DNA of 64,000 bases. Source: a bacterium. GTDB taxonomy: Bacteria > Patescibacteriota > Minisyncoccia > Phycocordibacterales > Phycocordibacteraceae. Shown here in pieces: positions 5,340-26,834 of the stretch (its first letter is position 1; each line of letters begins with the position of its first letter). A model generated the notes under the pieces. That model was given only the letters and a program-made list of their open reading frames with translations, searched no databases and was not told where the DNA came from. Position numbers and translations under genes: made by a program. The stretch is taken from the NCBI GenBank assembly GCA_021836725.1, contig JAKBHL010000006.1:21136-85135 (forward strand), in the 5' to 3' direction.

Positions 5340-5446
5340 TGTTACGTAAGCTAGCCAGTAATAACTTAAGAGGCCCATTCATGGTAGCACGGCACGGGAA
5401 CCCCCGAAGGGCTTTTGGGGGAAAACTCCTCTAGCCCAATGACACT

Positions 5447-5604: not shown

Positions 5605-5718
5605 GCTCTTCGGTAGTGCATTTGTGTTTCTACACACACGTGGTATAACCCCTAACGGCCAGTCAAAGATTTTTGGCGGCCAGGGTACTTCTTTCACTTT
5701 GTTCCTGTGAGGTGAATT

Positions 5719-5892: not shown

Positions 5893-5916
5893 CAATAACA
5901 GCGGTTTTCTTCCGTC

Positions 5917-5950
5917 AAAAGGGTACCCACGGGTACCCTTTTTGTTTTTT
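5917..5950 (+). terminator. rho-independent terminator
   Basis: AAAAGGGTACCC-AC-GGGTACCCTTTTTGTTTTTT. Confidence 0.7.
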
Positions 5951-6009
5951 GTTGCCGTTGCGGTATAGTGCTGCCCAGCACGTTCCTTAGACAGACAGAG
6001 GACACAAAT

Positions 6010-6261
6010 ATGCGACCTGCCACCGTTCTGCAAACACTGCACTGGATGAAAAGAGACAGTCGATTCCAGACATCGACCCTCCTCAAGCTTTTCGATCTGG
6101 CATACTTCTACCAGCACAGGGAGCTGAACGACCTGCGGATAATCCAAGACGCGCGCCGTATGAGGCAGGACGGATATGTACCGCCGTACGTCGTTCTCTT
6201 CCTCCGCAAACGTGTGCATCCGAAAATGCTGATCGTGAATAACGACCGGCGTGATCAATAA
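6010..6261 (+). CDS. hypothetical protein (83 aa)
   Basis: ATG at 6010 preceded by AGAGGA RBS and a TATAGT -10-like box. A terminator follows. Confidence 0.5.
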   Translation: MRPATVLQTLHWMKRDSRFQTSTLLKLFDLAYFYQHRELNDLRIIQDARRMRQDGYVPPYVVLFLRKRVHPKMLIVNNDRRDQ

Positions 6262-6303
6262 CAAAGAGCTGCTGATGCCTCATCAGCAGCTCTTTTCTTT
6301 TTC
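6262..6303 (+). terminator. rho-independent terminator
   Basis: AAGAGCTGCTGATG-CCT-CATCAGCAGCTCTT followed by TTCTTTTTC. Confidence 0.7.
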
Positions 6304-6322
6304 TGTCCCGCAGCATCCGAAT

Positions 6323-7108
6323 CTAACTGCCGACCACGGGGCTCGGTACCGTAAACGGCCGTACCGTACCAATGGCGGTTATGGTAAAGCTACCTTCTAT
6401 ATTTTTATTCCCGCTTATCGCATTGCTGAGACCCGCGACCGACTGGAGCAATGCGCCGCTCTGATCCGCGATGCAAGCCGACATCGGCACGATGGTTTCG
6501 GCGCTCCCATTGGCGTTCACGATGGTCCATACGTGCCCGGCAGTGTTGGCAAAATTACAGGTGCCGTCCTCGCGCAAACGTACCGTCGGGTTTGTCGCCA
6601 TTCCCCAGAATTGTTGTGCAAATCCCGGCAAAGGAGGGGTAGCACTCCCTTGCGAGGCATACCACTTCCCGAGTTTTACGTAGGTATGGGTACCGATATA
6701 CCTTTCTACCCATGGGGTAGTCGTTTCCCAATTGTCCGCACTGTACACATTGCCGGAAATCGTCATTGAGCGCCCTCCGCCATTGGTAACTTGTGTGTAA
6801 CTGTAGTTTGTGAGAGATTCCAACCTGGCAAGCGAAATATTGCCCGGAAGAACCGCGGTGCTCGGCACAATGCCTGAGGATCCGTTTTGCACGCCGATCG
6901 CGCTCGTGCCGGGTTGCACAGCGTTCTGTGCGTTTTTAAGAGCGAGGCCCAGAAAGACGACAAATAAAATACCAAAAATGACCGACAAGGGCTGGCGCAC
7001 TGCCGTCCCAAATCCGGTCCCTCTGCGCATCTGGCTGACGAGCGTCACGATAAGCAACACCACAGATATCGCGCTCGCGGTAAGAAAGGAATAGTGCATG
7101 AATCGCAA
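6323..7108 (-). CDS. membrane-anchored or secreted hypothetical protein
   Basis: N-terminal hydrophobic helix, then a Gly/Ser/Thr/Asn-rich extracytoplasmic-looking region. No recognisable catalytic motif. Confidence 0.45.
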   Translation of the reverse strand: MRFMHYSFLTASAISVVLLIVTLVSQMRRGTGFGTAVRQPLSVIFGILFVVFLGLALKNAQNAVQPGTSAIGVQNGSSGIVPSTAVLPGNISLARLESLTNYSYTQVTNGGGRSMTISGNVYSADNWETTTPWVERYIGTHTYVKLGKWYASQGSATPPLPGFAQQFWGMATNPTVRLREDGTCNFANTAGHVWTIVNANGSAETIVPMSACIADQSGALLQSVAGLSNAISGNKNIEGSFTITAIGTVRPFTVPSPVVGS

Positions 7109-10329: not shown

Positions 10330-10480
10330 GAACCCATTTCAAAACCCCACTCCCTGCGAGAGGTATGCGGCAGAAAGAGGCTTACGGAGCGTGACGACGC
10401 GAGTACGAGCTGCTTTTTCAGCAGAAAAAGACAGCGTACTCCTTTCTGTCGCATACCCGAGCGGGGGTTTTGAAATGAAC
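10330..10480. repeat. palindromic repeat element, copy 3 (right terminal repeat partly degenerate)
   Basis: GAACCCATTTCAAAACCCCACTCCCTGCGAGAGGTATGCGGCAGAAAGAGG...GGGGGTTTTGAAATGAAC. Confidence 0.75.
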
Positions 10481-11672: not shown

Positions 11673-12389
11673 TCAGGAGAGGATCGGGACGGCATACGTT
11701 TTCCTAAAGAGGATGGAATAAATGGTTATGTCCGTGACCACGATGCACCAGATGATGAGTGCGAGCTGAGCGTATCCGAAAAATACCCCGAGGAATGCGA
11801 ATAAAGCGAGCAGTGCTTCCACGGTGGTTATTTTCAGTTTTCGGAAAACGACCGCTGGGTTTTGCATGGACGGGAGTCTCAGTGTGTAGGTAAGCATCTC
11901 AAAAAGGAGGAATGCCAGTATGAGGATGCTGAAATACCCGGGATGGGCGAAAGAGAACGCGAGAGAGAGGTGGAGGAAAAGCAAGACCGCATGGAGCATT
12001 TTTTGGATGATCGTGTGGGCAGGCAGGACTTTCGAGACGAATGAATGGGAAGCGTACTCTTTCCACACGAGCGTCCCGTAGATGATGACCAGGGGCCATA
12101 CGAGCATCAAGTTCTGCAGGGCAATAGCCACACCGATAACGCCGAACACAACGAATAAAGCGATTTTTGCCGCCGCCCTTTTTTGAGAACTCATAAAAAC
12201 GTATGACGCCAGTGTACCATGGAGTGTGGTCATGCTCGCATACCCAAGATGAAATCCGGATGAAGAAGCGCGGAATGCTCTCTTCTCTTCGGGTAATGGA
12301 ATAAAAAGAAAGAACGTCACAGAACCTAGGTTCTGTGACGTCCAATTTTGATACTCGAAGCGTTGCTTAAGCCATAAACACCAGGCCAT
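11673..12389 (-). CDS. integral membrane protein, unknown function (start uncertain)
   Basis: Mostly hydrophobic with six or more predicted helices. No motif recognised. Confidence 0.4.
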   Translation of the reverse strand: MAWCLWLKQRFEYQNWTSQNLGSVTFFLFIPLPEEKRAFRASSSGFHLGYASMTTLHGTLASYVFMSSQKRAAAKIALFVVFGVIGVAIALQNLMLVWPLVIIYGTLVWKEYASHSFVSKVLPAHTIIQKMLHAVLLFLHLSLAFSFAHPGYFSILILAFLLFEMLTYTLRLPSMQNPAVVFRKLKITTVEALLALFAFLGVFFGYAQLALIIWCIVVTDITIYSILFRKTYAVPILS

Positions 12390-12525
12390 ATCGTTCCATG
12401 TCGATTACGAAGCAAGCGGGGTTGATAGTTCCCCAATTGATTCGTTCATCACCAACAACGTAAGACACGTCCGGATGCATTTGGTCAAGCACTTTTGCTC
12501 CTACATGGAGATATGAAAGAATATA

Positions 12526-13197
12526 ATGATATACGAATCAATTTATATGAAGTTTCCCCAAAACCAAAAAGAGAATATAGTCGGTCTTCATTTCTTATAT
12601 TCCCTAGAGTTCGAGATTTCGTATGTGCAGAATCTCGTGAAGAAATTTGTATGGTATCTGGAACAGGGATATCCTTCCGAGCTCATCCTGCTTCCACAAG
12701 GGGTGACTCAGCACTCGACAGAGGAAGAGGTCACGCAGGCGTTACAAGTCGAATACGATGCTGCCGATTATGCAGCATGTGCCGCGAGCCTACAGGAAGA
12801 ATGGAGAGATATCTCTGGAGGTTTTGAGAAGATGTGCAAGGAGCCAGTATTTCGTCTTGGAGACGAGTACAGCGTCGTCTTGACGAAGTACGGTACGGGG
12901 GGTAATTACAACGTCACTATGAGCCGAGTGACTATCCGTATCAATGCTCAGTCCTCCAAGAAGATGGCGGCGACTGTTGTGCACGAGATTATCCACATGA
13001 CCATCCAATACCTCATCGATCAGTATCGTGTGCGGCATTGGCGCAAAGAACGTCTCGTTGACTTGCTTGTCGAACGTTATTTCCCGGGGTTGAAGAAGAT
13101 GCAGATGATCAAAGAGGATGTTTCGATGGTCGATTCGGCGTTCAGTGAATCGTTTCCGGATATTGAAGCGATAGTACGGTCGATCCGATCATCGTGA
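12526..13197 (+). CDS. hypothetical protein with an HExxH motif (possible zinc-metallopeptidase-like fold)
   Basis: AATVVHEIIHMTIQYLIDQY. AT-rich codon usage unlike the neighbouring core genes. Confidence 0.4.
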   Translation: MIYESIYMKFPQNQKENIVGLHFLYSLEFEISYVQNLVKKFVWYLEQGYPSELILLPQGVTQHSTEEEVTQALQVEYDAADYAACAASLQEEWRDISGGFEKMCKEPVFRLGDEYSVVLTKYGTGGNYNVTMSRVTIRINAQSSKKMAATVVHEIIHMTIQYLIDQYRVRHWRKERLVDLLVERYFPGLKKMQMIKEDVSMVDSAFSESFPDIEAIVRSIRSS

Positions 13198-13257
13198 ATA
13201 ACGCGTCTGGGCGCGAAGGCGCTATCATCGACGGAAACATCCGATGAAGTAATATCA

Positions 13258-13287
13258 GTGTTAACAAGGTTAAACCTTGTTCTGACA
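13258..13287. repeat. 30-bp direct repeat, copy A (GTGTTAACAAGGTTAAACCTTGTTCTGACA; contains an AACAAGGTT-A-AACCTTGTT palindrome)
   Basis: Identical 30-mer recurs at 14804-14833. Confidence 0.8.
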
Positions 13288-13321
13288 CAAAAATATATTT
13301 AATTTAGTATTAACTCACAGT

Positions 13322-13573
13322 TTGGCATACGCTATAATTAAAAGCCTGGCAGAAGTAGCTAGAAAAATGAAGGAAGAAAACTTTACATTTCCGAGGGGTA
13401 CTTTACATAAAGTTTGTTGGGATATCTATCAGAAAGATAAGAGTGGTCAATATGAATCTGACTATGGAGATTTTTCTGAAATCGAGATCGATCAAATGGA
13501 AGACGAAAAATTTATTACAACGTTGCAGGATGAAATTAATTATTTAGAAAATAAATATGGACAAGCTACATAA
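13322..13573 (+). CDS. small acidic hypothetical protein
   Basis: AT-rich 83-aa ORF with no recognisable motif. Its 3' end overlaps the next gene by 17 nt. Confidence 0.35.
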   Translation: MAYAIIKSLAEVARKMKEENFTFPRGTLHKVCWDIYQKDKSGQYESDYGDFSEIEIDQMEDEKFITTLQDEINYLENKYGQAT

Positions 13574-14540
13574 AAAACACGTTCACAAGACAAAATCTGG
13601 CGGTACCGTCTCCCAATTCATTGAATCAAAGAATTTACCGGCGGATATCCAAATCAGTTCGTTCATAAATTTTGTCCATTTTGGAAGCGAGGTAATTTTG
13701 ACGCCGGACGACGGTACGTCTTGGGGCCCGGTTTCCGGGGAAATAAAAGGGCAAGTGGACTGGAGAAAAGAACTGGTGCGCGAGACAGGTGAAAAGGCCG
13801 GAGTGTTGGTTGATGGTGTGGTCTTGTGCGGATATATTTCAAATGAAAGTAAGGTAGGCGATTCCGATTCCGTTACGACAATCTCTCCCATATGTTATTC
13901 CTATTGTCACGATATTAATCCCACGTGGACTCCGAAAGGAATAATGACGAGAGAACTTTTTTCTCATTCCAATGTTAAGGAACACCTAGCGAAGAGAAAC
14001 GACGAGGGTCAGATGTTAGAACTGTATCTGTATATACACGACCAGTTTAATAGGGATCTGCGCATCGAATTTTCTTTTTTACCCGACGAAATGCCGGATG
14101 TCATATTCGTGACATCGGCAATGGTTTTTTGCATCGATGATGACAATCGAATATGCCTTGTTAAAGACGGTGATGAGGATTTTTATAGTCTACCCGGAGG
14201 AGGTCGTAGGCTTCTCGAATCTCCACTGGAATGTGCAAAGCGGGAACTGCAAGAAGAGGCTCAGATTACCGCGAAGAACTTCAAAATCTTTGGAAGCATA
14301 ATCGTTAGCTTCTATTCAAACGACGTCTTGATCTCTAAGATGCAACAAGCCAGGTATATTTGCGACGTAGATGTTATGGGGGAATTCATTCCTTTCAAAG
14401 ACGGTTTCGAGACGGATGAAAGAATATTCGTTCAGGCGGATCAACTTCTAACACTTGGTAAACAGTTCAAAAATAATAACGGCATCCAAATCGTTGAGCA
14501 TTTAATAAAGATACAACTTGATCGAGAACACAACGCTTGA
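13557..14540 (+). CDS. two-domain protein: unknown N-terminal domain plus C-terminal Nudix hydrolase domain
   Basis: LPGGGRRLLESPLECAKRELQEEAQI matches the Nudix box GX5EX7REUXEEXGU. Confidence 0.6.
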   Translation: MDKLHKKHVHKTKSGGTVSQFIESKNLPADIQISSFINFVHFGSEVILTPDDGTSWGPVSGEIKGQVDWRKELVRETGEKAGVLVDGVVLCGYISNESKVGDSDSVTTISPICYSYCHDINPTWTPKGIMTRELFSHSNVKEHLAKRNDEGQMLELYLYIHDQFNRDLRIEFSFLPDEMPDVIFVTSAMVFCIDDDNRICLVKDGDEDFYSLPGGGRRLLESPLECAKRELQEEAQITAKNFKIFGSIIVSFYSNDVLISKMQQARYICDVDVMGEFIPFKDGFETDERIFVQADQLLTLGKQFKNNNGIQIVEHLIKIQLDREHNA

Positions 14541-14561
14541 TATTGAAGATCAGCTGTAGCT

Positions 14562-14813
14562 ATGCATGTGAAGAGAATCCCGCAGGAGATTATAGGCAAT
14601 CGAGATATTAGCACGGTCACTCTCGATATTGATGGAACGATGGTTAATGAGTACGTAGAAATGCCGGACGAGATTATCGATGCGGTTCGTCAGTTACTAG
14701 GCGCGAAAGTGCACATTGTGATTTGTACAGCTCGCAGTATTGAGAGTATTCTAAAACTTTTCAAGAAATTCTTTTCCGAAGAGGAGATGAGTCTATTTTC
14801 CACTCCGTGTTAA
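14562..14813 (+). pseudogene. truncated HAD-superfamily (Cof-like) hydrolase; only the N-terminal 83 aa remain
   Basis: VTLDIDGTMVN is HAD motif I (DxDGT). The reading frame runs straight into the second copy of the 30-bp repeat and stops there. Full-length members are about 270 aa. Confidence 0.5.
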
Positions 14814-14833
14814 CAAGGTTAAACCTTGTTCTG
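14804..14833. repeat. 30-bp direct repeat, copy B
   Basis: Identical to 13258-13287. Confidence 0.8.
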
Positions 14834-15157
14834 ACAGCAAAAAATGCGAACATCCATCAGCAAGGATCAGTCCCTTGGCGTCCCAAAATGGACCGAGCGG
14901 ATGATTGAGAAGTTCGGACCTGAACTCACCATGCGGCAGCGAGGGAGGCCAAGAAAAGGTATCTGACACCATTTCCACCATTTCCATCAATTTTGGAGGC
15001 CGCACATATGTGCGGTATGTTGCCTCAAAAGGAACGTTCTTGCTCAACAATATGTTAATCTCTATAAAACTGCTATTGACGCTTATCAGGCTGATAAGCA
15101 GTTTGAACCTTGGTCGCATTTAACAAGAACGCTTCAAGCCCAATTTAAATAGTCGCT

Positions 15158-16078
15158 ATGCAAGAAATCTCTGAAGCTTTAAAGGAATATGGCCTGTCTG
15201 CGAACTCGCCTATAAATCTTGTTCGCGAATCTGCGGACAATGTTGTGTATGTTATTGGTGAAGATGATAAGAAAATCTTAAGAATTAGCAAAAGACTTTC
15301 TGTTGAAGATGTTGCTTTCGAATATGAAGCAATAAAATACCTCGCACAAAATGGTGTACCTGTAGCGCACTGGCTAACGACGAAAGCGGGGAAGGAATAC
15401 TCGTTGGTAGATGGCCACGCCGCAGTTCTTTTTGATTTTTTGACTGGCCATCATATAAATGTTGATAAAGATAATCTCCCGACACAAGTTCAAGCTTATT
15501 CCGCCGGAGCAGAGTTGGGTCGTATGAGTAATGCCGCCAGTACGTTTACATCAAATGCTCCGAGAACGAGAACTATTTTTTCTGAGCTCGAGCGCGTGCT
15601 CTCCCTTGAAGAAATGTTTGTTAAGGATTTTGAAGGCGGTGAGGAATTCGTTAACCAAGTTAAAGAAGCACTAAAATTCGGTAGAGCACAAAACGAGATA
15701 ATTGGCTTTATTCACAATGACTATCGTCCAAGCAATGTATTTTTTGATGAGAACGATCAAGTGACGGGAATAATCGATTTCGATTGGAGCTGCATGGGCC
15801 CAGTAGTTAAAGACTTAGCTCTAGCACTCGTGGAATGGTCTTTCCCAGATGGAGCCACCGAAGCAAATATGGCGCTATTCCAAGGATTCCTAGATGGATA
15901 CAATTCTATTTCGAATAAGAAGTGGAAGAAGGACGACAAACTCTATTCTTGGATTAAATTCGCCACTCTTTCTGATGCATCAACATATTTTTGCGACTTG
16001 GCTGAAGACCTGACTTCAACTAAGCGAATCATTAAGTCGTATATGTATCGAAAGTTCACGTTCTTTTCACAAGCCTAG
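15158..16078 (+). CDS. phosphotransferase (APH / choline-kinase-like) family kinase
   Basis: IHNDYRPSNVFF (Brenner HxDxxxxN catalytic loop) and GIIDFDW (DFG-equivalent) motifs. Confidence 0.65.
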   Translation: MQEISEALKEYGLSANSPINLVRESADNVVYVIGEDDKKILRISKRLSVEDVAFEYEAIKYLAQNGVPVAHWLTTKAGKEYSLVDGHAAVLFDFLTGHHINVDKDNLPTQVQAYSAGAELGRMSNAASTFTSNAPRTRTIFSELERVLSLEEMFVKDFEGGEEFVNQVKEALKFGRAQNEIIGFIHNDYRPSNVFFDENDQVTGIIDFDWSCMGPVVKDLALALVEWSFPDGATEANMALFQGFLDGYNSISNKKWKKDDKLYSWIKFATLSDASTYFCDLAEDLTSTKRIIKSYMYRKFTFFSQA

Positions 16079-16183
16079 TCATGGAGCCATATCTTTATTT
16101 GCAGGGTTTAAAGAAGCTTGCCAAAGAGGCCCGTGGAGATGAAGTAATACATATCGGGATAAGACCTGTGCTATAGTCTTTGC

Positions 16184-17269
16184 ATGACGGCGGAAACTCG
16201 CCCGGTCATCCTCACAGGCAACAACGAGGTTGCCAAGCTTCGAGCGTCCCATCCGGAGCTCGTCGAAGTCGACGCGTTCGTGCGCCAGCTAAAGGAGCTT
16301 TTCTTCATCGACAATCATGCGTTCATCGGTACGCCGAAAGAAGAGGCCTATGCGACCGAAGATTTCAAGAAGTATGCGTCTTCGAAAGAAGGCGCATTTG
16401 TCTATGTATATTTCCCCTGGAACAATACGCTCGTGAAGACCGTCGATGCCGGGGATTACTACCGGCTCAAGACGAATCGCAACCAAGACCTTATCACTGC
16501 CGAAGAACAGAAGAAGCTGCGCGACTACAAAGTCGCGGTGCTCGGGATGAGCGTCGGCTCCAACGTCGCATTCGTGCTCACGCAAGCGGGGATTTCAAAT
16601 GACATCATCCTCGCCGATTTTGACGAGCTCGATACCACCAATCTCAATCGCATCCTTGCCGGCGTGCATGAGGTCGGCTTGAATAAGACCGTCATCGCGG
16701 CGCATCGCATTTATGAAGACAATCCGTTTGCAAACGTCACCCTGCTCCAAGAGGGGATACATGAGACCAATCTCGAAGAGCTCATCAAAGCCGGCAAGAT
16801 AAACTGTATTCTCGAAGAGATTGATGACTTGCCGTTCAAGATTCACGCGCGCCTGCTCGCGATGAAATATAAGATTCCTGTGGTGATGGTGACCGACAAC
16901 GGCGACGGTGTCGTGCTCCACGTCGAACGGTACGATCTCGGCCACGACATGATCTGGGGCAAGCCGCACGAATACTACGAGGAAAAGCTCGCCGACGGCC
17001 CTATGACCAAAGAAAAAGCGGGCGACATCATCATCCACGACATCGTCGGCGGCGTGCACAGGGTCGATCCGAAAATGATCGCAAGCGTGAAGCGCGTGCT
17101 TGCCAAAGAACTGGTGTCGTGGAGCCAGCTCGGCTCGGCGGCGATCCTCGGTGCGGTTGTCGCGACCTACGCGATAAAAGAAATCGCGCTTGGCAAGGGA
17201 ACCAAGAAAGATATTCGTGTATGGATCAGCCCGGAGCAGGTTGAACACGGCACGCACGCCGCCTCGTAA
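16184..17269 (+). CDS. ThiF/MoeB (E1-like) family adenylyltransferase with an approximately 110-aa N-terminal extension
   Basis: Rossmann motif KVAVLGMSVGSNVAFVLTQAGI (GxGxxG) followed by DFDELDTTNLNR. TATAGT box 13 nt upstream of the ATG with no obvious SD. Confidence 0.65.
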   Translation: MTAETRPVILTGNNEVAKLRASHPELVEVDAFVRQLKELFFIDNHAFIGTPKEEAYATEDFKKYASSKEGAFVYVYFPWNNTLVKTVDAGDYYRLKTNRNQDLITAEEQKKLRDYKVAVLGMSVGSNVAFVLTQAGISNDIILADFDELDTTNLNRILAGVHEVGLNKTVIAAHRIYEDNPFANVTLLQEGIHETNLEELIKAGKINCILEEIDDLPFKIHARLLAMKYKIPVVMVTDNGDGVVLHVERYDLGHDMIWGKPHEYYEEKLADGPMTKEKAGDIIIHDIVGGVHRVDPKMIASVKRVLAKELVSWSQLGSAAILGAVVATYAIKEIALGKGTKKDIRVWISPEQVEHGTHAAS

Positions 17270-18370: not shown

Positions 18371-19918
18371 ATGAAATCTACTCTTAAATCACTGCAATCG
18401 CTCGCACTGCCCGGCAATCTCGCGGATATCGAAAAACTATCACTCGCACTCACGAATGATCGCCCAGAACTGTGGGAGAAGCGGGGCGATATGCAAGCTC
18501 TTAAATTATTCCGCGCAACGGCAGAGCGTGTCCCGGCCTACAGAGATTTTCTAAGGCGGAATAAAATCAACCCGGATTCGATTCGCACTATACAAGATTT
18601 CAAACAACTTCCGCTTCTCGATAAGGAAAACTATCTGCGAGCCTATCCTTTTGAAGATCTTTGTTGGGATGGGAAATTCTCCGAACGTGCCTGGACTATT
18701 TGTACGACCTCCGGCTCAACCGGGAAACCGTTCTATTTCCCGCACGGTCTTCTCCAAGACGCGCAGTACGCTCTTTTTGCGGAACTATATCTGCGCACCA
18801 ATTTTGAAATTCACAAAAAACGAACACTCTATATAAATGGGTTTCCGATGGGTGCGTGGATTGGCGGCGTGTTTACCTACAAAGCTGTCACGATGATTGC
18901 AGAACGTGGTAACTATCCGCTCAGTATCATTAATCCGGGGATCAATAAGGATGAAATCATAAAAGCGGTTCGGACCTTGGGATCGCATTTCGATCAAGTA
19001 ATCATCGGAAGTTACGGTCCTTTTCTCAAAGATACGCTCGACGACGGGGTTCGTGAGGGAATTGATTGGAAGAAATACAATCTGGGTTTCATCTTTTCTG
19101 CTGAAGGCTTCTCGGAAGGATTCAGAGATTATGTGCTTGAGGTGGCAGGGAAGAAGGATGATATAGCGGCAACCCTGAATCACTACGGAACTGTTGACCT
19201 GGGAACGATGTCGTACGAAACACCCCTGGCGATTCTCGCTCGCCGGCATGCGGTCGAAGATAGCAATCTCTACAAAGATATTTTCGATGACTCCGTGCGC
19301 TTGCCAACGTTCACGCAGTTCTTCCCGAACCTTTTCTTCTTTGAAGAAGTTGATCGAACGCTCATTTGCTCAGCACCGGCTGGCCTGCCGTTGGTGCGCT
19401 ATAACCTCAAGGATACCGGCGGCGTTTATACGTATGGAAAGGTTATAGAACTATTTAGCCGCCACAATATTGATCTCAACAAAGAACTTGCCGGTCGCAA
19501 TCTTGCACGTACGCAGTGGAATCTGCCCTTTGTATATGTGTATGAACGGAATGATTTCTCGGTCAGTTTTTATGCTTTCCAAATTTATCCCGCTACAATC
19601 CGTCGTGCACTGGAGCACCCATCACTGCGCTCGAAAATCACCGGAAAATTCTCGATGCGAGTTGGTTATGACCGGAATCAGAACCAACGATTTGAAATTA
19701 ATCTTGAACTCAAGAGCGGGGTAAAACGAGATAAGCCTTTTGAGGCAAAAGTAGTGCGTTTGGTTGTGGAACAACTACTCAAAGAGAGCTCCGAGTATCA
19801 GGAGACCTATCGCGAAAAACGACGTCGAGCATTACCGCATATCTTCTTCTGGCCGTACGAACACGAGCGTTTCTTCCGCCCCGGCATCAAACAGAAGTGG
19901 GTAATGCGTCAGTCATAA
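18371..19918 (+). CDS. PaaK-family (phenylacetate-CoA ligase / F390-synthetase-like) adenylate-forming enzyme
   Basis: TTSGSTGKPF AMP-binding P-loop near residue 115. Length and architecture fit the PaaK/CapK family. Confidence 0.65.
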   Translation: MKSTLKSLQSLALPGNLADIEKLSLALTNDRPELWEKRGDMQALKLFRATAERVPAYRDFLRRNKINPDSIRTIQDFKQLPLLDKENYLRAYPFEDLCWDGKFSERAWTICTTSGSTGKPFYFPHGLLQDAQYALFAELYLRTNFEIHKKRTLYINGFPMGAWIGGVFTYKAVTMIAERGNYPLSIINPGINKDEIIKAVRTLGSHFDQVIIGSYGPFLKDTLDDGVREGIDWKKYNLGFIFSAEGFSEGFRDYVLEVAGKKDDIAATLNHYGTVDLGTMSYETPLAILARRHAVEDSNLYKDIFDDSVRLPTFTQFFPNLFFFEEVDRTLICSAPAGLPLVRYNLKDTGGVYTYGKVIELFSRHNIDLNKELAGRNLARTQWNLPFVYVYERNDFSVSFYAFQIYPATIRRALEHPSLRSKITGKFSMRVGYDRNQNQRFEINLELKSGVKRDKPFEAKVVRLVVEQLLKESSEYQETYREKRRRALPHIFFWPYEHERFFRPGIKQKWVMRQS

Positions 19919-19930: not shown

Positions 19931-20719
19931 TCATTTCTCCTCTCTATTTTTTATCTTGTTGGTATTAAGCCGTCCGGCTTCTTCCCACGCAAGATTGAAG
20001 AGGCTCTTCATAACATCTGCAATATCCTGGCTTTGAATAATCACGCCGAATTCCTCGCTTGTTGAAATAAATACGATTTTGTCCGCATATATACGCAGTT
20101 CAGAAGAAAATGGATATATATCGGCTGGCACACATCGTACTCTTGAGGCGCCACTCTCATTTAATGATGAGCGCTCGACAGTTTTTTCGTAGGGGGAAAT
20201 GATCTCCGTTTTATATTTACGTTGTAAATTTTGATTCTTCCAAAAGGAAAATGATGAGCCAGAAATAACTCCTGCTGATACAGGTAAAAATGTGTACACT
20301 TGCGTCCCCTGCGGGTAGGCTAGCAGGTCATTACTAACAGTTTGTATTCCACCAACCCCTTCGTAAAACAATACATGTGGCTGGCTCTTTAGCTTCTTCG
20401 ATACCGAGAGAAGTTCGGAAAGCAATAAATTCATTTCATTTTCCTGTCGAGCTGAGCCCCGAGCCAACTTATCAGCTCGTTCCACAAGTTTTTCTGGGGA
20501 GACAGCGTAGTATTTAAGAATCCCGTTCTGCTGTGTTTTCTCGACAAATCCCTGCTTTACAAGTGTGGCAAGTAACATATAGGCCGACGACCGATTGAGT
20601 TTTGCTTCTCTTGCGGCCTCACGCGCGCTTGCCGGACCCATAGTAAGTAATCCCTGATAAAGTACAGCCGCTTTTTCCGAAAGTCCAAATTCTTGGAGAT
20701 GTGACAGTAGAGTATTCAT
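19931..20719 (-). CDS. TrmB-family transcriptional regulator
   Basis: N-terminal winged HTH LSEKAAVLYQGLLTMGPASAREAAREAKLNRSSAYMLLATLVKQGFVEK plus a C-terminal TrmB-like domain. Paralogous to the next gene. Confidence 0.6.
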   Translation of the reverse strand: MNTLLSHLQEFGLSEKAAVLYQGLLTMGPASAREAAREAKLNRSSAYMLLATLVKQGFVEKTQQNGILKYYAVSPEKLVERADKLARGSARQENEMNLLLSELLSVSKKLKSQPHVLFYEGVGGIQTVSNDLLAYPQGTQVYTFLPVSAGVISGSSFSFWKNQNLQRKYKTEIISPYEKTVERSSLNESGASRVRCVPADIYPFSSELRIYADKIVFISTSEEFGVIIQSQDIADVMKSLFNLAWEEAGRLNTNKIKNREEK

Positions 20720-21495
20720 GGAAATTCATCACCTATCCGTCGCGCTTCCCCGATCGCAAGGTCGAAAATTGTCTTCATCAATTCCGCAATTTCCTTACTC
20801 CTAATGAACGCTGTAAAAAGGAACGTGTGCGACATAAAAATCGTCTTATCATCGTAGACAGCAAAATCAGCAGGGAATCGATACTTGTCTTCCGAGATAA
20901 AGAAATGCGTATCCAAATCCTTAGACACGGGCATATTCTTAAATGCATTCATACTGCGAGGCTCTGCTGGATGAATCCCAACCATACCGATGTTTCTTTC
21001 CATCCGTTTTTGGACATAGGAAGGTAGATAATCGGGCAAGGTTCTAAAAATTTCAGGGCCGGAGGAAATGACCCGCATATATCCCTCTTTTAGAGAAAGG
21101 CTGTCATCAAATCCGTCTATTAACCCCTGCCGTCCTTCAAGTATAGTAACTTTGGGCCTGTAACGTGCCCCTCGATGTTTCGAGGAAAGTGCCGGAAGCA
21201 TGATCCGCAGATTTTTACTAAGTAGCTCGTGCCTTTCAGTCTTTTCTTTTGCTAGTTGCAGAAGATGTTCGGGTGGGGCAGCCACATATTTTCTGACCCC
21301 ATGAGTGGTTCCGATGCTTACGAGCCCTTGCTTGATAAGCCGTTCAAGGACCACATACATTGAACTACGATTGATACCTGTCTCCTTGCTAACCAGCTGA
21401 ACTGTGGCTCCGTCGAGAGACAAAAGCGCAAGATAAACCTGAGCATCCTTTTCAGGAAGTCCTAGTGCAGAAAGTCGTTTTGCGAGGGGTGTCAT
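20716..21495 (-). CDS. TrmB-family transcriptional regulator (paralog)
   Basis: LPEKDAQVYLALLSLDGATVQLVSKETGINRSSMYVVLERLIKQGLV. Its stop overlaps the downstream paralog's start by 4 nt. Confidence 0.6.
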   Translation of the reverse strand: MTPLAKRLSALGLPEKDAQVYLALLSLDGATVQLVSKETGINRSSMYVVLERLIKQGLVSIGTTHGVRKYVAAPPEHLLQLAKEKTERHELLSKNLRIMLPALSSKHRGARYRPKVTILEGRQGLIDGFDDSLSLKEGYMRVISSGPEIFRTLPDYLPSYVQKRMERNIGMVGIHPAEPRSMNAFKNMPVSKDLDTHFFISEDKYRFPADFAVYDDKTIFMSHTFLFTAFIRSKEIAELMKTIFDLAIGEARRIGDEFP

Positions 21496-21652
21496 ATAGG
21501 CACAACAGGCGGGAACTCACCTCGCCCATTTGTTGTCAGATATTAGCAACAATATGAAATATGGACAAGACAGCCACTTACTGAGATGGAGATAATCCAG
21601 GCCGATATTTTTGGTGTCATTTCGGACATCTTCAAAATAGAGTTGTTATAAA

Positions 21653-22045
21653 TTGACAACGATTATCTTTGAACCAAACATCTATCATATGGGTATTAAT
21701 CAGCCGTTCAGAAGAGATAAATTCTATCGTGATCGCGACAGTTACGCCGAATGGTGGACAATTGGGTGTTCTGCGTGTGCTCAAAAAGTGCTTCTCTATC
21801 AAAAAGATGGACACGGTAAATTATATCGTTGCTATCTAAATCGAATTTTTGCTCCATCAGACTATGCAAATCTTCAGTATGATTCAAGATTGACGGTAAA
21901 AAAACTACCCAATCTTGTTTGTGCACACTGTAAGAATCTTCTCGGAATCCCCATGCTTCATTGGGAAGGCAGGCTTGCGTTTCGACTAATCAAAGGACGT
22001 TGGGTAAGACGTAAAGCACAGCAATCCGATGAATGGAAAATCTAA
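21653..22045 (+). CDS. small protein with a four-Cys zinc-ribbon-like motif
   Basis: CSAC...CAHC Cys pairs. Overlaps the next gene by 17 nt. Confidence 0.4.
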   Translation: MTTIIFEPNIYHMGINQPFRRDKFYRDRDSYAEWWTIGCSACAQKVLLYQKDGHGKLYRCYLNRIFAPSDYANLQYDSRLTVKKLPNLVCAHCKNLLGIPMLHWEGRLAFRLIKGRWVRRKAQQSDEWKI

Positions 22046-22748
22046 AGATATAATACGGACTGTACGGAAAATCCTTATTCCAAAGGGGAAGAGGATACAA
22101 GTCGTTGAGTGCGGAGTAAAGAAGTATCTACTCGTCACACGAAAAGGCGTTGGCGCAATTCATACACCATATGGATATTTTTGGCAATATGATTTTCATG
22201 TTAATGATGAATGGGAGAAATATTCTGTCTTAGTACGCGCTTCGCTGAATGGGCAATTCAATCCAGTTTTTACTCGTAAAAACCTGTTGCTCCGCATAGA
22301 TTCTGGATGCGAGACGGGGCAACTCTTTCATGACAACACATGCGAATGTCGTGAACAATTGCATCTAGCATTACAAAGAATTGACGAATACGGAGAAGGG
22401 ATCATTGTGCACATCCCTTCTCAAGATGGGCGTGGTGGTGGGTTGGCTTTCAAGCTTGCAACACTGCTTCTCGAAAAGGATTTGGGGATGGATACGATAG
22501 AAGCCGCACGTGTTCTTACTGACGGGGGCGAAATAGATTTTCGAACCTATGGAGGTGTAGTTGGTATCTTGAAATTCTTCCGCGCCCAGAAAGAAGTATT
22601 TCTTATGACGAACAATCCGCTCAAGATCTCAGCTCTCACTGAAAATAAATATAAAATATCACGCCTAAATATCGTTGTCCCACCAACACGCTTCACTGCT
22701 AGACATTTGCGTGCCAAAGAGCAAGAGCTCGGACATATGCTTTCATGA
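22029..22748 (+). CDS. GTP cyclohydrolase II (RibA)-family protein
   Basis: RIDSGCETGQLFHDNTCECREQLHLALQRIDEYGEGIIVHIPSQDGRGGGLAFK...LMTNNPLKISALTE aligns with the RibA zinc motif CxxGxxxxxxxCxC and the C-terminal LTNNPxK region. Confidence 0.7.
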   Translation: MNGKSKDIIRTVRKILIPKGKRIQVVECGVKKYLLVTRKGVGAIHTPYGYFWQYDFHVNDEWEKYSVLVRASLNGQFNPVFTRKNLLLRIDSGCETGQLFHDNTCECREQLHLALQRIDEYGEGIIVHIPSQDGRGGGLAFKLATLLLEKDLGMDTIEAARVLTDGGEIDFRTYGGVVGILKFFRAQKEVFLMTNNPLKISALTENKYKISRLNIVVPPTRFTARHLRAKEQELGHMLS

Positions 22749-23545
22749 CGGAGCAGTTAACCATTTCGCTGCGGGGATTGTCTGCATCTGGGAAGGGCAC
22801 AATAGCGCCGATTCTTGCAAAAGAACTTAACGTACAGCATATAGATTGCGGACTATTGTTCAGAGCAATAGCGTTGTATATATGCGAACATCAAATTACG
22901 AGCAAACATCTTTTCCTAGAGAAAGTTCGTATTCGAATGATATGCGAAACGGTGTTCATTGTTGAAGAAAAAACATATCCTCGCGAGCAATTGCAAACTG
23001 AAAAGGTCGGATATCTTGCGGCTGAGTTGGCCAAAAGCCACAGCGAACAGCTTGTGTCATTAGTGAATGAACTGCTATCGAGTATGTCGCGAGTTGTCGT
23101 AGATGGGCGAAACGCAGGATTGAATATTCTCCCTAATCCGGACTTTTCTTTTTTCCTTCAAGCAAGTTTGAAGTCGCGTATCCAACGACGGTATGAGCAA
23201 GAAAGGTTTATTAATAAGGAAATAAAGAAATCAGAGATAAAATCTTCTCTCATCAAAAGAGACACTGTTGATCAAAAACGTGACAGAAAGCTCACAGAAC
23301 CCCAATTAAATGAGCACATCATCGTAACAGATGGGAAGACTCCATTACAATGCGCTAGAGAAATTGTCTCCGTAGTCAGAATTAAGACAAAAATGTTGGC
23401 ATGGACTGCAGTAGATAAACATGGAGATTTTTTCACTTATGAAGATGGAACAGTAGTTGTGGTAAGAAATAAGAGCCAGATACCTATCAGAGTGCGAGAA
23501 AGCGAGGAATATTCCGTGGTTAAAATAGAACTCAAGTTTGCGTAA
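22745..23545 (+). CDS. cytidylate-kinase-like P-loop nucleotide kinase with a C-terminal extension
   Basis: ISLRGLSASGKGTIAPILAKELNVQHIDCGLLFRAIAL resembles the Cmk N-terminus (P-loop plus the D.G..YR region). ATGA start/stop overlap with the upstream gene. Confidence 0.55.
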   Translation: MTEQLTISLRGLSASGKGTIAPILAKELNVQHIDCGLLFRAIALYICEHQITSKHLFLEKVRIRMICETVFIVEEKTYPREQLQTEKVGYLAAELAKSHSEQLVSLVNELLSSMSRVVVDGRNAGLNILPNPDFSFFLQASLKSRIQRRYEQERFINKEIKKSEIKSSLIKRDTVDQKRDRKLTEPQLNEHIIVTDGKTPLQCAREIVSVVRIKTKMLAWTAVDKHGDFFTYEDGTVVVVRNKSQIPIRVRESEEYSVVKIELKFA

Positions 23546-23666: not shown

Positions 23667-24728
23667 ATGGTTCCCGATAACACAATTCTTCTTGAAATTC
23701 TGCGAGATGCTTGTCGAGCGCCTTCCGGCGATAATGTCCAGCCGTGGCGTTTTCGATGGGATGGTTCGACACTATCCCTCTACAACATCCCTGACATCCA
23801 CAACCCATACCTTGATTTTGAGGAACGCGGCGCATATATCGCACATGGTGCGCTCCTCGAGAACCTCGCGATTGCCGCCCCGCATTACGGCTATAACGCC
23901 TCGATAACACTCTTTCCGGATCTGGGGGTGCCCGATTTGGTCGCATGCATCGCCTTTGCACCTAGCGTTGCGTATGATGACCCGCTGTATACGGCGATAT
24001 CGAAGCGCGCAACGAATCGCCGCCCGTATGCATCACGCGCACTTACGTCCGATACACGCGTCGCGCTCAGAGACGTTGCGATGCCTAAAGATATAACACT
24101 CATTCTCATCGAAGACACCACAAAAAAAGAAGCGCTCGCACCGCACATAAGCGCAATGGAGCAACTCTTACTCGGTCATCCGGCTCTATCAAGTGCATTC
24201 TTCAGTCATATCGTATGGACGAAACGTGAAGAACGCGTAAGACGTAGCGGATTCTACATAAAGACCATGGAGTTCAATCCAGTGCAGGCATTCGTATTCA
24301 AGCTCGCAAGTAAACCCTGGCTTATGCGCGCGTTCCGCAAACTCGGGCTCCCCGCACTCATCGCGAATGAGAATGCCAAACTGTACAGGGGAGGCTCGGC
24401 ACTCGGGGGATTGCACGCGTCAGATTTTTCCAGAACTAGCGCAATTGCGCTAGGGCGTGCGCTCGAGCGCGTCTGGCTCACGGCTACGACGTTCGGACTC
24501 GCGTTCCAACCACTTTTTGGTACCACTATGATGGGGTACAAGTCGCGCCACGGCGAAGCGATGTTCCTCTCGGACGCGGAACGTACCGCCATTGAAGCAA
24601 ACGCGCGCTCTCTTGAGGCAACGTTCAAGAACACACATGATACGCCGACACTTATCTTCCGTGTTGGCTATGCTCAGGAGCCGAGTGCGTATACGTCTCG
24701 GAAGGAACCGAACATAGTTTATAATTAA
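23667..24728 (+). CDS. nitroreductase-family protein (tandem nitroreductase-like fold)
   Basis: CRAPSGDNVQPWRF N-terminal nitroreductase signature. The 353-aa length implies two nitroreductase-like halves. TATAAT at about 23630. Confidence 0.6.
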   Translation: MVPDNTILLEILRDACRAPSGDNVQPWRFRWDGSTLSLYNIPDIHNPYLDFEERGAYIAHGALLENLAIAAPHYGYNASITLFPDLGVPDLVACIAFAPSVAYDDPLYTAISKRATNRRPYASRALTSDTRVALRDVAMPKDITLILIEDTTKKEALAPHISAMEQLLLGHPALSSAFFSHIVWTKREERVRRSGFYIKTMEFNPVQAFVFKLASKPWLMRAFRKLGLPALIANENAKLYRGGSALGGLHASDFSRTSAIALGRALERVWLTATTFGLAFQPLFGTTMMGYKSRHGEAMFLSDAERTAIEANARSLEATFKNTHDTPTLIFRVGYAQEPSAYTSRKEPNIVYN

Positions 24729-24735
24729 AGCACCC

Positions 24736-26334
24736 ATGGGTGCTCTTGCGAATTTTGATCTCTTGTCGGTAGGCGTCGCCATCGCGGGCACGCTCGTGCT
24801 CGGGTTCGTCATTTATTTCACCGATCAGAAGAGTGGTACGAATCGCATCTTTTTCGCGTTCGCGTTCGTCACCGCGATATGGGGCTTGCTCAACTATCTC
24901 AGTTATCGCGTCGAGGATCTATCCGTCGCGTTTGCACTCCTACGTTTCGAACTTGCGCTCGCCGTGTGGCAAACGTTCATAATCTTTCGGCTTCTGCTCA
25001 TCTTCCCGGACCGCGACGATGTACTTCCACGGCGCTATCTGCTCGCGCTTGTCGTGTACGCGGGCGTCGTATCCGTGCTGTGCCTCACGCCATTCGTCTT
25101 TGAGCGCATCACTACAGTTACCGCCACGGGGTATATCAAAGACATAGCCGTCGGGCCGGCAATCGCGCTCTTCGGCGTCACGAGTATAGGGTTCGTCCTT
25201 GCAGGGTGGATAGTGTGCGCCCGGAAGACGTTCCGCCTCAGGGGCGCACAGCGTGCGCAAACGGGTTTCTTCCTGCTCGGGGCGATTGCGATGTTCTTGC
25301 CAATCATCATTCTGAACTTCATCTTTCCAGCATTCTTGCGGGATTCGAGATTCGTTCCGTATGGCGCGGTCTCAATATTCCCGTTCGTGCTGTTCACGTC
25401 TTACGCAATCCTGCGTTTCCATTTGTTCAACATCAAGGTCATTACGACGTCCATACTCGTATTCGTGCTTTCCATCGTTTCATTTGGGCAGATTCTTTTC
25501 TCGGGCACACTGCCTGCGATGCTGTTCCAAGCGAGCGTTTTCATGCTCGTGCTCGTATTCGGCATCAACCTGATCAGGAACGTTATCCGGGAAGTGGAGC
25601 AGCGGGAAAAGATACAGAAACTCGCGAAAGAATTGGAGGAGATCAATAAACGGCAGGAAACACTCATCCACTTCATCGGGCACGAGGTGAAGGGGTTCCT
25701 GACCAAGGCTGAGGGCGCATTCGCGTCGCTTACCGACGGTGATTTTGGCCAGTTGCCTGAGGAACTGAAGCCGTTCGTCGAGCGCTCATTCGCCGAGACC
25801 CGGCAAGGCGTTGGTTCGGTCGAGGACATCCTCAAGGCGTCGAACATCAAGAAGGGAACTGTGGCATACGCCAAAGAGCCATTCGATCTGAAAGCGCTCG
25901 TGACAGAAGCGGTCGAGAAGGCAAAGATGGCGGCCGCCCAGAAAGGTCTTGCGCTTACTCTCGTCGCAGACGACGCGTCGTATCAGATGACTGGCGACAG
26001 AGCGCAAATCAACGACCACGTCCTGCGCAACCTCATCGACAACGCTATCAACTACACGCCATCGGGTTCTATCGTGGTCTCGCTCGCGCACGAGAACGGC
26101 AAGGTCGTCTTCGCCGTGAAAGACAGCGGCATCGGCATCACCGACGAGGACAAACAGCGTCTTTTCACCGAGGGCGGCCACGGCAAGGACTCGCAGACGA
26201 TCAACGTGCACTCCACCGGCTACGGTCTCTACATCGCAAAACAGATTACCGAGGCGATGGGCGGCACGATCCGCGCCGAGTCCGAAGGCGCGGGGCGAGG
26301 GTCTACATTCATCGCGGAATTTCCTGCGGGATAG
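24736..26334 (+). CDS. sensor histidine kinase with multi-pass membrane N-terminal domain
   Basis: About 7 TM helices, H-box HFIGHEVKGF, and an HATPase_c C-terminus GYGLYIAKQITEAMGGTIRAESEGAGRGSTF. Confidence 0.8.
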   Translation: MGALANFDLLSVGVAIAGTLVLGFVIYFTDQKSGTNRIFFAFAFVTAIWGLLNYLSYRVEDLSVAFALLRFELALAVWQTFIIFRLLLIFPDRDDVLPRRYLLALVVYAGVVSVLCLTPFVFERITTVTATGYIKDIAVGPAIALFGVTSIGFVLAGWIVCARKTFRLRGAQRAQTGFFLLGAIAMFLPIIILNFIFPAFLRDSRFVPYGAVSIFPFVLFTSYAILRFHLFNIKVITTSILVFVLSIVSFGQILFSGTLPAMLFQASVFMLVLVFGINLIRNVIREVEQREKIQKLAKELEEINKRQETLIHFIGHEVKGFLTKAEGAFASLTDGDFGQLPEELKPFVERSFAETRQGVGSVEDILKASNIKKGTVAYAKEPFDLKALVTEAVEKAKMAAAQKGLALTLVADDASYQMTGDRAQINDHVLRNLIDNAINYTPSGSIVVSLAHENGKVVFAVKDSGIGITDEDKQRLFTEGGHGKDSQTINVHSTGYGLYIAKQITEAMGGTIRAESEGAGRGSTFIAEFPAG

Positions 26335-26362: not shown

Positions 26363-26599
26363 ATGAGCAGTATGAGAAATATTATGCAATTTCAGATTTC
26401 TGAAAGCGATGGAGGCTATGTCGCCGAGGGTGTAAGCGTGCCTATTGTTACCCAAGGAGAGACTCTTGATGAACTTGCTTCGAATATTCGCGAAGCAGTC
26501 GGGCTCTATGTAGAAGGTGAAAATCTCGCTGAGCTTGGTTTCGCACCGGCGCCTTCAGTGTTGGTAAATTTCGAGCTTCCCGCATCGGTGCATGCCTAA
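26363..26599 (+). CDS. hicB: HicB-family antitoxin (UPF0150)
   Basis: MQFQISESDGGYVAEGVSVPIVTQGETLDELASNIREAVGLYVEG. Overlaps hicA by 8 nt. Confidence 0.65.
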   Translation: MSSMRNIMQFQISESDGGYVAEGVSVPIVTQGETLDELASNIREAVGLYVEGENLAELGFAPAPSVLVNFELPASVHA

Positions 26600-26834
26600 A
26601 CCAAAGAGGCTTTCAGGGCCGGATATTATTCGGATCTTTGAGACGTTTGGTTTTACAATCGAGAACCAGCGAGGGAGTCACATAAAGCTCTCGCGTCTTG
26701 AATCTGACGAGAAACAAGTACTGCTCATCTCGAATCACAAAGAGCTAAAGACGGGAGCGGTCGTGGGGATATTTAAGCAGGCGACGCGATATGTGGCAGA
26801 ATCGGAACTTCGCGGACATTTCTACACTGAGTAA
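26592..26834 (+). CDS. hicA: HicA-family mRNA-interferase toxin
   Basis: IIRIFETFGFTIENQRGSHIKLSR...KELKTGAVVGIFKQA (YcfA/HicA GSH motif). Confidence 0.65.
   Translation: MPKPKRLSGPDIIRIFETFGFTIENQRGSHIKLSRLESDEKQVLLISNHKELKTGAVVGIFKQATRYVAESELRGHFYTE

Follow-up and report, generated by a model that had tools for sequence, protein, structure and literature searches.

Two characterised enzymes share the fold of GTP cyclohydrolase II (GCH-II), and both bear on the locus described here. RibA (EC 3.5.4.25; structures 2bz0, 4rl4 and 4i14) opens the imidazole ring of GTP in riboflavin synthesis, using three cysteines that bind the catalytic zinc and Arg128 as the proposed nucleophile for pyrophosphate (PPi) release (PMC10366380). 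UTP cyclohydrolase (URC1/UrcA) is described as a GCH-II-fold enzyme that acts on a pyrimidine nucleoside triphosphate (NTP) (Zhang et al., ACS Catal 2021, as cited in PMC12507026). Our analysis concerns a 64,000-nt stretch of contig JAKBHL010000006.1 from a member of the Patescibacteria, hereafter the window, to which all positions refer unless another contig is named. It carries a three-gene cassette encoding a zinc-ribbon protein (ZnR), a GCH-II-like zinc enzyme and a P-loop nucleoside monophosphate (NMP) kinase resembling cytidylate kinase (Cmk). On the sequence evidence set out below, we judge the chances to be about even that this cassette is a dedicated pyrimidine-nucleotide conversion module, widespread in Patescibacteria, and that the copy in the window is a regulated one acquired laterally.

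The cassette lies opposite two regulator genes, from which it is separated by a short spacer:

19931..20719, minus strand: TrmB-family helix-turn-helix (HTH) regulator 1, 262 aa, distal of the pair (PF01978, E 1.1e-13)
20716..21495, minus strand: TrmB-family HTH regulator 2, 259 aa, nearest the cassette and divergent from it (PF01978, E 8.6e-16)
21496..21688, no strand: AT-rich divergent intergenic region, 193 bp, GC 0.38, presumed shared control region
21689..22045, plus strand: ZnR, zinc-ribbon protein, 118 aa from the ATG at 21689 (no Pfam or NCBIfam match)
22029..22748, plus strand: GCH-II-like zinc enzyme, 239 aa (PF00925, 92 bits)
22745..23545, plus strand: Cmk-like P-loop NMP kinase, 266 aa (PF02224, 106 bits)

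All five open reading frames (ORFs), two on the minus and three on the plus strand, were confirmed at these coordinates by an ORF listing. The arrangement proposed for them in the original prediction, which was made from the DNA letters and a list of ORFs, agrees with this listing and with PF01978: the tandem TrmB-like genes overlap by 4 nt, converge with a plus-strand frame at 18371-19918 and diverge across the 193-bp spacer from an operon whose members overlap by 17 nt (ZnR and GCH-II-like) and by 4 nt (ATGA; GCH-II-like and Cmk-like). ZnR was initially given 130 aa, which is the length of its longest ORF (21653-22045) when read from a TTG. Both CxxC pairs noticed in it are present, but gene callers and homologue alignments prefer the ATG at 21689 and hence the shorter protein.

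The AT-rich patch that had been noticed at this five-gene block is real and has sharp borders. Its genes have a GC content of 0.41-0.46 and a third-codon-position GC content (GC3) of 0.32-0.43, with regulator 1 at 0.40. By comparison, the mean GC of the window is 0.546, and GC3 was measured in five flanking genes, four of which have values of 0.56-0.72; the fifth, the PaaK-like gene next to the block, takes an intermediate value of 0.49. A Pfam listing revealed no riboflavin genes within 10 kb on either side of the GCH-II-like gene, as had been observed originally. Identical proteins are encoded on contigs of the Patescibacteria metagenome-assembled genome (MAG) GCA_027422625.1 and of sibling metagenome assemblies.

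The GCH-II-like enzyme belongs to a clade with more than 300 homologues at ~50% identity, nearly all from Patescibacteria, which databases name “RibA”, “RibBA” or “hypothetical”. A scan of one genome per GTDB species yielded 79 GCH-II-like loci in many lineages of this phylum, including Parcubacteria, Saccharibacteria, Uhr-, Magasanik-, Andersen-, Peri- and Nomurabacteria, WWE3 and others; a small number of bins are labelled otherwise and may be mis-binned. The initial description of the protein as a RibA-family GTP cyclohydrolase II proves too strong. It scores 106.9 bits against the ribA equivalog model TIGR00505, about half the cut-off of 205.85 bits, and the catalytic Tyr105 of RibA is missing throughout the clade. 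Pfam detects nothing in the protein beyond PF00925, and thus no N-terminal domain of the URC1 type. The zinc motif CETGQLFHDNTCEC reported earlier is present, whereas the second motif reads MTNNP and not LTNNP.

A confident AlphaFold model of the enzyme (pLDDT 93.5) finds E. coli RibA (2bz0) as its best Foldseek match (E 1e-13, TM 0.86 on the RibA chain, ~31% identity), with UTP cyclohydrolase (7eev/7ej3) as the runner-up (E 4e-6, 13% identity). We therefore describe the active site in E. coli RibA numbering, based on a residue census of 68 clade members. The zinc cysteines C54, C65 and C67, corresponding to C94, C105 and C107 of the window protein, are kept in 67-68 of the 68. Equally well preserved are R49 (68/68), R94 (66/68), K101 (67/68), D126 (67/68), R128 (68/68) and K154 (68/68), along with S52, Q70 and Q91 (66-68/68 each) and the TNNP motif. 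The enzyme thus resembles RibA in its fold, its Cx10CxC zinc site, the Arg128/Asp126 pair, Arg49, Arg94, Lys101, Lys154 and TNNP.

The clade also differs from RibA at several positions. Most members carry the changes H51D (66/68), E53G (66/68), D58Q (60/68) and N118A (63/68), and position 105 is Tyr in none of the 68, being Leu in 48 (including the window protein), Glu in 12, Met in 4 and Gln in 2. Of the catalytic Arg, Tyr and Lys whose conservation had been singled out for checking, R128 and K154 are present in all 68 and Tyr105 is absent. A Glu or Asp directly follows the first zinc cysteine in 53 of the 68 proteins, and a conserved, beta-rich N-terminal segment of ~40 aa with its own invariant residues is specific to the clade. 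Ren et al. are said to have found in 2005 that Tyr105 of RibA is hydrogen-bonded to the zinc-activated water and is needed for canonical ring opening and deformylation. In an alignment, the His-x-Glu-Cys and Tyr positions are common to RibA and UTP cyclohydrolase. As judged by these residues, the clade retains the machinery for NTP binding, PPi release and zinc coordination and has rebuilt the region around the reactive water that both characterised cyclohydrolases share. An enzyme with this predicted active site cannot be a canonical RibA.

The genomic associations of the clade also differ from those of RibA, as its partners are ZnR and a nucleotide kinase, and no rib genes occur in the neighbourhoods examined. 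We surveyed 84 loci, a few of them redundant, in which ORFs were labelled with hidden Markov models seeded from the window and from locus L008. ZnR is found in 70 of these loci, an OMP-decarboxylase-family protein (PyrF) in 63, a guanylate kinase (Gmk)-like protein in 54, a ThyA-like protein in 18 and the window-type Cmk-like kinase in 5. The genes usually run ZnR, GCH-like, PyrF, Gmk-like, and a copy of ZnR lies before the others, after them or at both ends. In Saccharibacteria the genes ThyA-like, GCH-like, PyrF and Gmk-like follow each other in one direction. The PyrF proteins of the module pass their equivalog cut-off of 110.6 bits with scores of 181-190 bits. The short ThyA-like protein retains the Cys nucleophile, Arg166, Asp169 and the uracil-type Asn177.

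Several loci encode these proteins as fused single ORFs (GCH-PyrF, PyrF-Gmk-like, Gmk-like-ZnR and ZnR-GCH), and the two fusions that involve ZnR were confirmed with Pfam on independent database proteins. In L043, L038 and L070 the module is the immediate neighbour of a cluster for de novo pyrimidine synthesis. The one that was annotated, L043, contains carB, pyrE, a pyrD-like gene, pyrB and pyrC, with pyrE and the pyrD-like gene scoring below curated cut-offs. Since this cluster already has pyrE and a pyrD-like gene, a role of the enzyme as a substitute for PyrE or PyrD was rejected. Neighbours outside the core are variable and mostly housekeeping genes (dnaX, nusA, yidC and tRNA synthetases), and no riboflavin, folate, pterin or defence family recurs among 130 neighbouring proteins from at least 60 loci. 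The earlier suspicion that the cassette is a dedicated, translationally coupled nucleotide module and not part of housekeeping riboflavin synthesis is borne out by this recurrent operon with pyrimidine genes.

The window has a rarer form, with a Cmk-like kinase standing in for PyrF and the Gmk-like kinase. When three 218-aa relatives of this kinase were picked solely because they lie on long contigs, all three were found immediately downstream of ZnR and GCH-like genes. The combination ZnR, GCH-like and Cmk-like is a recurrent second form of the operon, which we call variant B. In a rough neighbour-joining (NJ) tree variant B is scattered among the common form, which implies that the kinase swap occurred several times or that this form moved laterally. 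Co-conservation of the three genes, put forward at the outset as a check on their linkage, is strongly upheld by the 84-locus census, the variant B loci and the phage copies described below.

Additional genes accompany some of these operons. In L090 (5735-6433) and L091 (5779-6492), the gene directly after that of the Cmk-like kinase encodes a THEP1-type NTPase (PF03266), which in L090 ends in a Cys/His-rich tail; variant B may have in it a fourth component, one that the window lacks. Locus L092 (3091-4865) has tandem GCH-II-like genes, the second of which encodes a divergent paralogue (SSGCYSGM, 272 aa) of the type carried by phage L097, and is flanked by TIR-domain proteins. Eight loci from different lineages, namely the window (24736-26334), L007 (11673-13244) and six more that include L035, L041, L042 and L085, encode a HisKA_7TM sensor histidine kinase no more than a few genes away from the GCH-like module. 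No response regulator was noted beside this kinase in the window.

Neither type of partner kinase looks like a standard member of its family. The Cmk-like kinase has a Cmk-type P-loop NMP-kinase fold (PF02224 over residues 7-210; PDB Cmk matches at E 3e-14) and shares with Cmk (1q3t, 2h92 and 1cke) the P-loop, the overall architecture, the NMP-binding insert and the DGR and RRxxQ motifs. However, it scores 88.1 bits against TIGR00017, below the cut-off of 135.55, has DGRN where the solved Cmk structures 1q3t and 2h92 show DGRD, and has D(L/C)G..FR where these have DSG..YR. It also differs from Cmk by its linkage to a GCH-II-like gene and by a C-terminal tail of ~54 aa, shorter than the 90 aa first estimated, which is common only to the orthologue in L007. 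That orthologue, labelled (d)CMP kinase by NCBI, is the only close relative; the remaining matches are 218-aa proteins with at most 38% identity.

Ser36 and Asp132 of E. coli Cmk occupy positions that we take to contact the cytosine base. The first is replaced by Cys in the window protein and by Leu in the 218-aa relatives, and the second by Asn in both. The replacement of Asp by Asn can also be seen, independently of the E. coli sequence, in alignments with 1q3t and 2h92. The likeness to cytidylate kinase noted originally therefore stands, but neither the score nor the altered cytosine-contact positions are those of a bona fide cmk product. The Gmk-like kinase of the common form reaches 60-80 bits against an equivalog cut-off of 160 and has lost Ser37, Tyr53 and Glu72 of true guanylate kinases. 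By alignment, then, both alternative partner kinases lack the residues that would read the base, which is guanine for the Gmk-like and cytosine for the Cmk-like protein.

The two CxxC pairs of ZnR (CSAC and CAHC) are invariant in a family that also has a YQKDGxG motif and that forms 576 clusters at 50% identity, none with an annotation, in a library of 1.84 billion proteins. The AF2 model of ZnR is confident (pLDDT 91.7), and its top Foldseek matches in the PDB, although weak (E 0.08-0.4, TM 0.37-0.48), are all beta-tent zinc domains, including those of bacterial cereblon, the C-terminal domains of RIG-I, MDA5, LGP2 and DRH-3, and MsrB. A ZnR profile gave nothing significant against PDB sequences, and the non-significant matches include Mis18, a Yippee-type domain. 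Like the beta-tent domains of the cereblon/CULT, RIG-I, MsrB and Mis18/Yippee types, ZnR has ~110 aa with two CxxC pairs on beta hairpins; unlike them, it belongs to none of these sequence families, and every match is below significance (E at least 0.08, TM below 0.5).

Cereblon-type domains bind uridine, and RIG-I-type domains bind 5'-triphosphates, properties that would fit a subunit with affinity for nucleotides. One lead from the model is that ZnR may be a small ligand-binding, perhaps nucleotide-binding, subunit. Its fusion to the kinase in some loci and to the hydrolase in others argues that it works physically with both. We considered whether upstream and downstream ZnR copies form two paralogue families, and rejected this because identity is equal within and between the groups. 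ZnR homologues also occur with no GCH-like gene nearby, at 7788-8276 of L096 (162 aa, on a 65-kb viral contig) and at 7743-8282 of L098 (179 aa, on a contig labelled as a giant-virus MAG), so the protein may have other partners.

The module is also carried by phages. A ZnR alignment searched against IMG/VR identified the 59.7-kb phage L097 (IMGVR_UViG_3300033143_004977), which encodes a terminase large subunit and a primase/helicase. Its replication block contains, at 4201-6506, GCH-like, ZnR and Cmk-like genes followed by an RlaP nucleotidyltransferase (PF10127, RNA-repair type). Scanning IMG/VR with the enzyme alignment gave nothing, and the DSGCETGQ pattern matched only unrelated proteins there. 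The GenBank phage collection yielded only ordinary RibA-like genes (~32% identity) and no ZnR. A second example, L095, is a 21.8-kb phage-like contig with many tiny ORFs, NinG, an HNH protein and a Pam3-gp33-like protein. It has the order ZnR, GCH-like, Cmk-like with 17-nt and 4-nt overlaps identical to those of the window.

For all three proteins, L095 is nearest to the pair formed by the window and L007 (55%, 51% and 40% identity; rough NJ tree), and its GC content of 0.40 is like that of the window cassette and unlike that of the window genome. Considered with the abrupt change in GC3 at the edges of the cassette, this kinship points to a lateral origin of the regulated block of five genes, whose source would have had a lower GC content and was possibly linked to phages.

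The two TrmB-like proteins would control transcription from the shared 193-bp spacer. They match the whole 68-residue PF01978 profile with 51 and 58 bits (cut-off 25.6) and share only 28% identity, which indicates old paralogy and not a recent duplication. NCBIfam models for TrmB and TrmBL1 reach only the first ~80 residues (18-30 bits versus cut-offs of 600-650) and detect no sugar-sensing C-terminal domain, and the C-terminal ~170 aa match no family in Pfam or NCBIfam. PADLOC matches of the two proteins are likewise confined to the HTH part of Csa3/CARF models. The pair is kept upstream of the cassette in the relative L007 (70% identity), where the orthologue of regulator 2 holds the equivalent position, and one copy is found in L089. 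Promoter and terminator scans of the cassette performed no better than shuffles, and the sigma-70-like matches in the spacer are weak and at chance level.

If the cassette is indeed a pyrimidine-nucleotide conversion module, the enzyme would take a nucleoside triphosphate, most likely a pyrimidine ribo- or deoxyribonucleotide ((d)NTP), expel pyrophosphate via a covalent nucleotidyl-arginine intermediate and perform a zinc-dependent hydrolysis on the base that is distinct from opening of the guanine imidazole ring. In the preferred version, (d)CTP or (d)UTP would be converted to (d)UMP, making the enzyme an analogue of Dcd/Dut that feeds thymidylate synthesis (ThyA); in the deaminating case, zinc-bound water would attack C4 of cytosine. 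Taken by itself, this specific reaction, in which PPi would be the second product, is a tentative suggestion on the unlikely side. The partner kinase would phosphorylate a monophosphate of the same nucleotide family (UMP, dUMP or dTMP-like), and ZnR, as a subunit of the beta-tent type, would either bind the nucleotide or link the kinase to the hydrolase.

The GCH-II fold already includes a member that uses a pyrimidine NTP, UTP cyclohydrolase (7eev/7ej3), which sets a precedent for a change of base specificity and has the zinc triad and the Asp-x-Arg nucleophile motif in common with our enzyme. The two differ in that UTP cyclohydrolase, at ~420 aa, includes a large N-terminal domain, retains the His, Glu and Tyr residues and lacks TNNP, whereas the enzyme of the window has 239 aa. 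UrcA is moreover catabolic, while the Patescibacteria module is placed with biosynthetic genes. Phage T4 encodes a dCTPase/dUTPase (gp56), a dNMP kinase (gp1) and a ThyA-family enzyme, and a bifunctional dCTP deaminase-dUTPase is also known. By analogy, the module may share with such nucleotide-pool systems the logic of an NTP-to-NMP pyrophosphohydrolase, an unusual NMP kinase and a ThyA-family enzyme in a phage replication block. A division of labour like that of Dcd/Dut and Tmk, or of T4 gp56 and gp1, would explain why phages carry the module. The folds, however, are unrelated (GCH-II versus dUTPase/MazG), and the module has a zinc-ribbon partner and is mainly chromosomal and phylum-wide.

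Several points weigh against a pyrimidine module of this kind. The substrate is deduced solely from gene context and residue changes, and a plain dUTPase-like role would need no invariant zinc site. The sequence of the clade matches RibA (E 1e-24) much better than UTP cyclohydrolase (E 0.018), so GTP would still be a possible substrate. PyrF and ThyA are absent from the variant in the window, where the link to pyrimidines consequently runs through homology to the common form and through the Cmk-type kinase. The beta-tent assignment of ZnR, with its weak Foldseek matches and no sequence match, is a lead rather than a result, and lateral acquisition of the block is drawn only from base composition and a crude NJ tree.

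Possible, though doubtful in our estimate, is that the clade represents a third functional branch of the GCH-II superfamily, with an undescribed nucleotide conversion, a complex with a new beta-tent zinc subunit and exchange of the module between ultrasmall bacteria and their phages. One possibility for such a branch is a deaminating zinc pyrophosphohydrolase that would turn (d)CTP into (d)UMP and replace Dcd/Dut. Another is the synthesis of a non-canonical nucleotide, in which case the dedicated kinase might re-phosphorylate the product for incorporation into DNA or RNA.

Were GTP the substrate, the enzyme could be a GTP cyclohydrolase of altered outcome, yielding for example a formamidopyrimidine (GCH-III-like) product for an unknown cofactor or for a pterin/folate-like route that serves thymidylate synthase, with the kinases recycling GMP or phosphorylating the product. 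RibA is the nearest relative in sequence and fold, the zinc triad and Arg128 are invariant and a ThyA-like gene is adjacent in 18 loci. Spoonamore and Bandarian reportedly found in 2008 that a Streptomyces coelicolor paralogue with Met at the position equivalent to Tyr105 gives an altered product while ring opening persists, and Adams et al. are said to have shown in 2014 that Chlamydia RibA can supply folate synthesis. We nevertheless consider this explanation unlikely, as His51, Glu53 and Asp58 are changed in addition to Tyr105, the Gmk-like partner is devoid of guanine-reading residues, no pterin, folate or riboflavin gene recurs among the 130 neighbouring proteins, and both the PyrF fusion and placement in pyr clusters favour pyrimidines. 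Catabolism of the URC type, in which the uracil ring of UTP would be opened for nitrogen or carbon and the kinase would help to make UTP, accommodates the pyrimidine-gene context, kinase residues unsuited to G or C and the structural match to 7eev/7ej3 (E 4e-6). It is quite improbable, however, given that UrcA is very distant in sequence (E 0.018, 13% identity), that none of the His, Glu and Tyr residues common to RibA and UrcA is retained and that the N-terminal domain of URC1 is missing. No urea-handling family is among the 25 recurrent neighbour families listed, and breakdown of UTP within a de novo pyr operon, in scavengers and in phage replication modules is physiologically implausible.

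The original prediction favoured an anti-phage cassette whose GCH-II-like effector would destroy GTP upon infection, and this we now regard as very improbable. Points in favour are that the block is AT-rich, has regulators of its own and was apparently acquired laterally, that a HicA/HicB-like pair lies 2.8 kb downstream and that TIR-domain proteins flank the L092 copy. Yet a PADLOC scan of nine proteins returned nothing for defence: PADLOC-DB 2.0 has no match for the enzyme or ZnR, and the kinase has only a weak P-loop match to VakA (E 7.5e-6). Conservation with PyrF, ThyA-like and pyr genes, fusion to PyrF and housekeeping neighbours place the module in core metabolism, and phages themselves carry it among their replication genes. 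Those fusions and the residence in operons with pyr and ThyA genes also point to free-nucleotide metabolism and leave only a slim chance for RNA 5'-end processing or repair, whereby ZnR would bind 5'-triphosphate ends, the enzyme would remove pyrophosphate and the kinase would re-phosphorylate the ends. Such a role would fit the RIG-I, MDA5, LGP2 and DRH-3 C-terminal domains among the ZnR fold matches, the RlaP gene (PF10127) after the L097 cassette and the THEP1-type NTPases after those of L090 and L091, but the fold matches are weak and the kinases belong to NMP-kinase and not polynucleotide-kinase families. To an ordinary housekeeping ribA and cmk that are neighbours by chance we give almost no credence. 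NCBI does label the L007 kinase a (d)CMP kinase and several members of the enzyme family RibA or RibBA. Even so, enzyme and kinase both fall under their equivalog cut-offs, Tyr105 is absent, the neighbourhoods examined hold no rib genes, and a three-gene linkage that recurs in distant lineages and in phages is not due to chance.

In the searchable literature we found no account of the operon, of the altered active site of the clade or of the ZnR family. Within the GCH-II (NTP cyclohydrolase) superfamily the enzyme is best regarded as a new variant, with an obligatory partner protein that is itself new. Patescibacteria account for a large part of bacterial diversity and depend on scavenged building blocks, and how they supply and balance their nucleotides is an open question (PMC11665869). 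Dropping the RibA label removes a false “riboflavin” signal from metabolic reconstructions of this phylum. Once the reaction is established, a missing step in how organisms with reduced genomes obtain pyrimidines or thymidylate could come to light, or else a new modified nucleotide, and the unannotated 576-cluster ZnR family would also gain a function. Direct in vitro tests are feasible, as ZnR and the enzyme are small, soluble-looking proteins with confident AlphaFold models.

Elsewhere in the window, positions 26363-26834, just downstream of the HisKA_7TM kinase, encode the HicB-like protein (78 aa) and the HicA toxin (80 aa, PF07927). A look-up of the protein encoded at 42183-43271 returned no record. 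Another AT-rich segment, a 3.96-kb insertion at 12270-16231 (GC 0.41-0.43), is absent from contigs L001 and L002 of sibling strains, which have ~110 bp in its place and elsewhere are 98.6-99.9% identical to the window. The segment is a strain-variable islet with nucleotide- or phosphate-acting genes, which along with a HAD-hydrolase fragment include:

13557-14540: NUDIX protein, 327 aa
15158-16078: APH/choline-kinase-like protein

An intergenic repeat of ~150 nt is present in four copies (2718-2859, 5448-5597, 10330-10477 and 48385-48500) that are 89-95% identical by blastn. It forms a long imperfect palindrome (GGAACCCATTTCAAAACCCC ... GGGGTTTTGAAATGGGTTC), is not a tRNA, matches no Rfam family and looks like a REP/MITE-like element. 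On the two sides of the cassette, separate proteins match the two halves of the Rv1355c family, a ThiF-like protein (16184-17269) the N-terminal one and a nitroreductase/Acg-like protein (23667-24728) the C-terminal one. Their genes are 6.4 kb apart in the window with the cassette between them, whereas in L007 the nitroreductase gene is directly followed by the ThiF gene. Beside the ThiF gene are a ScyB-like Trp/Glu-family dehydrogenase (277 bits, below cut-off) and a PaaK/F390-synthetase-like ligase, and the ThiF, nitroreductase, dehydrogenase and ligase genes may form a small-molecule biosynthetic set.

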